A DNA stretch of 64,000 bases from Escherichia coli (lineage in GTDB: Bacteria; Pseudomonadota; Gammaproteobacteria; Enterobacterales; Enterobacteriaceae), in assembly GCF_003334355.1 (NCBI RefSeq), contig NZ_QOWP01000006.1; one strand, given 5' to 3'. The notes under the pieces are model-generated. The model made no database searches. It was not told the DNA's origin and saw nothing but the letters and a program-made list of their open reading frames with translations. Shown here piece by piece: positions 19,445 through 19,606 of the stretch. A program made the translations under genes and the position numbers. Position 1 is the stretch's first letter. Each line of letters opens with the position of its first letter.

Positions 19445-19606
19445 ATGTCACTTGAAAATGCCCCTGACGATGTCAAACTGGCTGTCGATTTGATTGTGCT
19501 GCTGGAAGAAAATCAGATCCCAGCCCGCACCGTGCTGCGCGCGCTGGATATTGTAAAACGCGATTATGAAAAGAAATTAACGCGCGATGATGAGGCGGAA
19601 AAGTGA
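19445..19606 (+). CDS. ybaM: Small protein YbaM (DUF2496), 53 aa
   Basis: Manual translation from ATG 19445: [53 protein letters not shown], stop TGA 19604..19606; below the 60 aa cutoff of the ORF track. Confidence 0.7.

Follow-up and report, generated by a model that had tools for sequence, protein, structure and literature searches.

The short reading frame directly behind priC in Escherichia coli raises two questions: whether it is a gene at all and, if it is, what its small product does. We addressed both in a 64,000-nucleotide stretch of E. coli DNA, called the window here, whose positions are counted from its first letter. The preliminary description had pointed to an ATG-initiated frame of 53 codons, 13 bp after priC, and had named it ybaM. 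The frame is seen both in the sequence and in an ORF list that goes down to 20 aa, the gap is exactly 13 bp (19432..19444), and the RefSeq name rsmS, the family model NF008266 and the domain DUF2496 all agree with that identification. The gene and its immediate upstream side comprise the following features.

18904..19431, + strand: priC, encoding primosomal replication protein N'', with a GTG start and a TAG stop (in RefSeq at 4055-4582 of the 100%-identical locus L001)
19436-19439, + strand: Shine-Dalgarno sequence GGAG in the priC-rsmS gap, 5 nt 5' of the rsmS ATG
19445..19606, + strand: coding sequence of rsmS (ybaM), from RefSeq CDS WP_000051146.1, NF008266, DUF2496 and dN/dS
19448..19576, + strand: conserved core, residues 2-44, DUF2496, from the Pfam span, the alignment and AlphaFold2
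19577..19603, + strand: variable acidic C-terminal tail, residues 45-53, LTRDDEAEK, which differs between E. coli alleles and between genera

Identity and coding status

The frame (19445..19606, +) opens with ATG, encodes 53 aa and closes with TGA. Its length is a poor guide by itself: because the 3 kb around it contain 51 ORFs of 20 aa or more, 53 aa is not above chance. That abundance is also what would favour reading it as a frame that is open by chance, within the 3' untranslated region of priC, and never translated. We compared the frame with its orthologues in E. albertii, Citrobacter, Salmonella, Klebsiella, the Enterobacteriaceae isolate ESL0689 and Tatumella, and with three other E. 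coli alleles. Codons 1-45 hold neither an indel nor a stop in any of these relatives or alleles, and of the six frames that of rsmS is the only one free of stops in every compared sequence. Against six relatives, dN/dS over the same codons was 0-0.13 (Nei-Gojobori), as low as or lower than that of the neighbouring priC (0.04-0.24). Substitutions fall largely in third positions, the differences from the window by codon position 1/2/3 being 0/0/10 in E. albertii, 1/3/22 in Salmonella and 4/1/20 in Citrobacter. Judged from these comparisons, the rsmS core is under strong purifying selection, and the check proposed at the outset, conservation of the reading frame across the Enterobacteriaceae, gave an intact core frame.

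The Shine-Dalgarno sequence is kept as well: in Citrobacter, Klebsiella, Salmonella, E. albertii and ESL0689 the corresponding position is occupied by GGAG or a GGA(A/G) purine run. The NCBIfam equivalog model NF008266 has a cut-off of 76 bits, which the protein passes with a score of 94 bits (E 3.5e-27, profile positions 1-45 of 46), and residues 2-44 match the whole of Pfam DUF2496 (PF10689; model positions 1-43 of 43, E 4.1e-24). An exhaustive HMMER scan of 1.84 billion representatives found homologues in 181 clusters at 50% identity (E <=1e-3), so the family is small. Its named members include Erwinia, Tatumella, Vibrio, Moritella and Algibacillus; since Vibrio and Moritella are among them, it extends past the Enterobacterales into the Vibrionales and Alteromonadales. 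Each of these results speaks against a chance frame, as does the complementation of mutants by plasmid-borne rsmS (PMC6418279). The ORF is real because conservation, family membership and annotation all support it, and the chance-frame reading, to which we give next to no credence, is in effect refuted by the conservation analysis.

The gene is also already annotated. The region is 100% identical in several complete E. coli genomes, including ATCC 8739, where it is annotated as priC, rsmS and mscK, and RefSeq/PGAP gives the product at the identical locus as rsmS, "pleiotropic regulatory protein RsmS" (WP_000051146.1). A BLAST query with just the ORF found rsmS DNA in 5425 of 5426 complete E. 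coli genomes, at one place per genome, and the gene was annotated in all 40 of 40 records sampled evenly down the ranking of E. coli matches. One genome of the 5426 gave no rsmS match, and two of the 5425 matches were on records labelled as plasmids. It is essentially certain that the feature is the known gene rsmS, formerly ybaM, and pointing it out was correct and ordinary. As the outcome of a scan it carries little weight, since the gene has a name, a published genetic role and an annotation in every E. coli RefSeq record examined.

The statement that ORF listing misses the gene was right for the default list with its 60-aa cut-off, from which rsmS is absent, but does not extend to the RefSeq annotation, where it is present. 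The default list gives instead 19564..19752 (-) and 19758..20117 (+), neither annotated by RefSeq. One of these two ORFs runs through the REP elements described below, whereas its companion overlaps the end of mscK in antisense. With these entries in it and rsmS missing, the length filter both loses a real gene and reports unannotated ORFs; a 60-aa cut-off thus hides real genes as it lists their unannotated neighbours. Elsewhere in the window, the list gives apt as a 201-aa ORF with a TTG start (17753-18358, -). RefSeq has 183 aa (L001 2904-3455, corresponding to 17753-18304 of the window), which means that the list over-extends the 5' end of apt.

The protein and its linkage to priC

RsmS has 53 or 54 residues in E. 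coli, 55 in Salmonella and in Citrobacter, 57 in Klebsiella and 59 in E. albertii. These differences in length all fall after residue 44, outside the conserved domain, and the tail reads LQSDEASQSE in EDL933, LTRDDEAQSENKWGR in E. albertii and LKSAEGASQTD in Citrobacter. The preliminary description had held that frameshifts or altered stop codons in close relatives would indicate a frame under no selection. Codons 1-45 have neither, and the stop does shift position, only within the C-terminal tail; because its movement is limited to the tail after residue 44, it does not count against selection on the frame. The tail is evidently free to vary.

An alignment of 56 family members places the conserved residues in the same part of the protein. 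E21 is invariant, and A6, L12, A13, V14, D15, L16, I17, L20, A33, L34, D40 and K44 are at least 90% conserved (n=56), all of them present in the window protein. The invariant and near-invariant columns all lie between A6 and K44, and no conserved column was found past K44. The window protein is thus a small stand-alone protein of a family of ~50-60 aa, with the pattern KLAVDLIxLLE ... ALxIV..D...K. An AlphaFold2 model built on this 56-member alignment has a mean pLDDT of 91.4 and helices at residues 8-22 and 27-52, with pLDDT at 96-97 across residues 11-40 and averaging 67 over the last three (51-53). The first helix holds the KLAVDLIxLLE motif and leads through a turn to the second, which begins within the core, so that RsmS is confidently predicted to be a two-helix hairpin. 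A PDB sequence search gave no relative at E up to 1, and Foldseek gave no match for the model in the PDB.

The position of the gene is conserved as well. At all Enterobacteriaceae loci examined rsmS lies directly 3' of priC on the same strand, with a gap of 13-14 bp in five, and eight other taxa have a priC-rsmS arrangement like that of the window; Pfam PriC was found upstream of rsmS in the relatives. The distance is 176 bp in Tatumella, and in Vibrio the two genes overlap by 4 nt, by coordinates. In Moritella priC is again upstream of rsmS, and a metagenomic contig (L014) has a ComFB-domain gene between priC and rsmS. In Algibacillus (L012) only a ComFB gene precedes rsmS, and no priC was found within 2.5 kb upstream. 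These small ComFB-domain genes lie just before rsmS, at L014 2245-2514, with a 14-nt overlap with rsmS, and at L012 2223-2486. Further upstream, a string of a DEAD_2/Helicase_C_2 helicase, TauE, priC and rsmS is conserved outside the Enterobacterales (Vibrio L010 1-2504, Moritella L013 1-2129, L014 1-2099), unlike the Enterobacteriaceae, where the upstream side of priC-rsmS is apt-ybaN.

Between priC and rsmS a promoter scan gave no sigma-70-like site, and the sole terminator-like site in the terminator scan is on the opposite strand, inside the priC end, at chance frequency. In Pectobacterium the co-transcription and operon structure of priC and rsmS have been described (Monson et al. 2019, PMC6418279), and a review counts priC-ybaM among the operons without known logic. 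So persistent an adjacency could reflect a functional tie between the two proteins, RsmS serving for instance as an accessory factor in replication restart, with its Rsm phenotypes being indirect. The linkage is unusually durable, holding in Escherichia, Citrobacter, Klebsiella, Salmonella, ESL0689, Tatumella, Vibrio, Moritella and the metagenomic contig; the Vibrio overlap is compatible with translational coupling, and the entry in the review fits too. The genetics of Pectobacterium atrosepticum point the other way. There, insertions in both ECA1172 (rsmS) and priC suppress an rsmB mutant (Monson et al. 2019, PMC6418279), and the phenotype of the priC insertion is one of polarity, complemented only by rsmS and not by priC (PMC6418279). 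The Algibacillus gene follows a ComFB gene, its upstream 2.5 kb holding no priC, and our literature search gave no replication phenotype for ybaM. We therefore regard a functional tie to PriC as very unlikely.

RsmS and the Rsm/Csr pathway

The function of RsmS has been studied by genetics in Pectobacterium and Serratia. The RsmS proteins of P. atrosepticum (ECA1172), P. carotovorum and Serratia sp. ATCC 39006 belong to the same family and size class as the window protein and have the same position 3' of priC on the same strand. They differ from it in the C-terminal tail, and the P. atrosepticum priC-rsmS gap is 37 bp (PMC6418279) against 13 bp in the window. Single rsmS mutants of Pectobacterium overproduce cell-wall-degrading enzymes and quorum signal and are hypervirulent, and overproduction of RsmS has the same effect as its loss (PMC6418279). 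In Serratia an rsmS mutation raises the expression of three CRISPR-Cas systems (2021 NAR study, PMC8450108); rsmA is epistatic to rsmS, and the increase does not require rsmB and is additive with pigX/csrD (PMC8450108). These published genetics indicate that RsmS acts in the Rsm/Csr pathway, supporting the activity of RsmA/CsrA.

Monson et al. named E. coli ybaM as the RsmS homologue (PMC6418279), and it was in Pectobacterium and Serratia, not E. coli, that the phenotypes (plant cell-wall enzymes, OHHL, carbapenem, CRISPR-Cas expression) were measured. In E. coli, the Keio ybaM mutant is among those with altered curli production, and an A13V change in RsmS arose in a gut-adapted strain, A13 being nearly invariant in the 56-member alignment. 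By the account in PMC6418279, a yeast two-hybrid contact between YbaM and CsrA comes from one high-throughput E. coli report, without validation by other techniques. Our literature search found no E. coli experiment with an effect of rsmS on a CsrA target. The view that the function is poorly characterised is thus fair for the mechanism and for the role in E. coli, where knowledge is thin, but overlooks the genetic role in the Rsm/Csr pathway (PMC6418279, PMC8450108).

Taking the locus and the genetics together, we think it probable that RsmS, the second gene product of a priC-rsmS operon and a cytoplasmic 53-aa protein predicted to form a hairpin, is a small cofactor of CsrA (RsmA). RsmS would bind this global RNA-binding regulator, and the bound protein would help CsrA to repress its target mRNAs, independently of the decoy sRNA CsrB/RsmB. 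Either loss of RsmS or a stoichiometric excess of it would then weaken CsrA-mediated repression. We infer both that RsmS binds CsrA directly in vivo in E. coli and how it promotes CsrA function. As enzyme output is raised by both loss and overproduction, a simple cofactor model fits only through stoichiometry.

RsmS might also reach the Rsm phenotypes without touching CsrA, through the stability of the RsmA/CsrA protein or mRNA or through stringent-response or envelope-stress circuits. An effect on RsmA stability and an undiscovered pathway are the alternatives that Monson et al. (2019) list, and Pectobacterium rsmS mutations also bypass a relA/spoT defect (PMC6418279). According to work cited in that paper, an E. 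coli ybaM mutant is disadvantaged under envelope stress, its complementation having needed the priC promoter. The same source cites altered half-life and abundance of ybaM mRNA in csrA51 and csrD mutants, so RsmS could be a target and not a partner. Such an indirect route fits less well with the Serratia epistasis, which sets rsmS upstream of rsmA and dependent on it (PMC8450108), and with the two-hybrid contact cited above. We consider it a tentative alternative that deserves some weight and is on the whole unlikely.

FliW (Bacillus subtilis, Campylobacter) and CesT (EPEC) are the established proteins that modulate CsrA by direct binding. Both are much larger than 53 aa and neither is a helical hairpin. 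They antagonise CsrA, whereas RsmS, by genetics, supports RsmA/CsrA (PMC6418279, PMC8450108). For RsmS we found no sequence or fold relation to either, Pfam giving only DUF2496 and the PDB sequence and Foldseek searches no match.

The downstream BIME and two E. coli alleles

What goes beyond annotated and published knowledge at this locus is only a minor observation, on the alleles of rsmS and on the terminator behind it. The segment downstream of the gene holds the following.

19616..19634: left copy of a duplicated hairpin (GGGGCCGCTAAATGTCCCC), direct repeat D1, a weak stem in the window allele
19660..19688, + strand: REP element 1 (GCCTGATGCGCTACGCTTATCAGGCCTAC), inverted repeat I1, multi-copy in E. 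coli
19724..19757, - strand: REP element 2 (GCCGGATGCGGCGTGACCGCCTTATCCGGCCTAC on the - strand), inverted repeats I1 and I2, with the REP core
19788..19808: right copy of the duplicated hairpin, then CTTTGGTTATT, from direct repeat D1 and the fold
19818..23180, - strand: mscK (kefA), the convergent neighbour downstream of rsmS, from the ORF and RefSeq annotation

The REP cluster that had been reported after the ORF is thus present as an inverted pair (19660-19688 and 19724-19757). Since the second element is inverted relative to the first, the pair is a BIME. These are imperfect palindromes of ~30-35 nt in an inverted, multi-copy pair, the features by which REP/BIME elements are recognised. 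The REP core has an exact match at 19745-19757 (-), one of 8 in the window against 0.5 expected, and for a BLAST query that included the REP spacer the median number of matched places in an E. coli genome was 19, compared with one for the ORF-only query. Around the locus Rfam gave only sub-threshold matches (naRNA4, ES036, Ysr224) and no RNA gene overlapping the ORF; the weak naRNA4 and ES036 matches, below the gathering scores of both families, overlap both REPs.

In these respects the pair is like the canonical inverted REP/BIME pairs that occur in many copies in every E. coli genome, typically between convergent genes. It differs from other E. coli BIMEs in lying between two copies of a hairpin that, in strains without the BIME, is a single bidirectional terminator, and in that its presence accompanies a RsmS C-terminal tail unlike that of BIME-free strains. 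The two hairpin copies that flank it (D1) span 19616-19634 and 19788-19806 and are 84% identical. The left copy, which aligns with the left half of the single terminator hairpin of the REP-less strains, folds at -6.7 kcal/mol (z -0.15), and the right copy at -14.2 kcal/mol (z -3.2) on the + strand and -17.7 kcal/mol (z -4.4) on the - strand. From these predicted folds, the right copy is likely to form the 3' end of priC-rsmS transcripts when these continue through the BIME.

E. coli O157:H7 EDL933 and strain CUWW06 represent the other state. They have no BIME, their RsmS is of 54 aa with the tail LQSDEASQSE, and their rsmS-mscK spacer is 38 bp long with one hairpin between an A run and a T run. 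This hairpin folds at -21.4 kcal/mol (z -6.3) on one strand and -20.1 kcal/mol (z -5.8) on the other, and has the look of a strong bidirectional terminator. Junction-specific queries of complete E. coli genomes showed the spacer to be dimorphic, of the window type in 4059 of 5426 and BIME-free in 1365 of 5426. The dimorphic stretch corresponds to window 19577-19817 (compared with loci L002 and L004 (845-925) and L003), and the two rsmS alleles diverge from about codon 44 on. The resemblance of the BIME-free tail to those of Citrobacter and Salmonella suggests that the BIME-free allele is probably the older, ancestral state.

Variation between E. coli strains also reaches into the core. The window and a K-12-like allele differ at 7 of 135 sites in the rsmS core (19445-19579) and at 5 of 528 in priC (Fisher p = 0.004), so within-E. 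coli nucleotide diversity is locally high in the rsmS core. An R28/S28 polymorphism occurs with both tails, in all four combinations, which indicates recombination within this short gene.

These observations allow a wider speculation, which we think distinctly improbable as a whole. RsmS may represent a third class among the protein partners of CsrA, one that is new in structure and acts as a positive cofactor, in contrast to the antagonists FliW and CesT. Its two E. coli alleles, one with the BIME and LTRDDEAEK and the other with no BIME, LQSDEASQSE and a strong bidirectional terminator, may differ in RsmS dosage or activity and hence set the Csr regulon differently between lineages. Through the persistent linkage to priC, Csr control would then be tied to the capacity for replication restart.

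Across genera, the interval that separates rsmS from mscK is variable. In Citrobacter it holds a full Rpn-type gene (Transposase_31 and HTH_Rpn_C; L005 2738-3661), in Klebsiella a 61-aa HTH_Rpn_C remnant (L006 3047-3232) and in Salmonella ~1 kb with no called gene (L007 2669-3702); E. coli has the BIME or nothing. Elsewhere in the window six Rfam matches exceeded the gathering score, for naRNA4 (REP-derived) twice, sroB, the dnaX frameshift element, SRP RNA (ffs) and sraA. Together they occupy 1158-1235, 2533-2616, 8296-8373, 16296-16360, 33164-33260 and 50899-50994.
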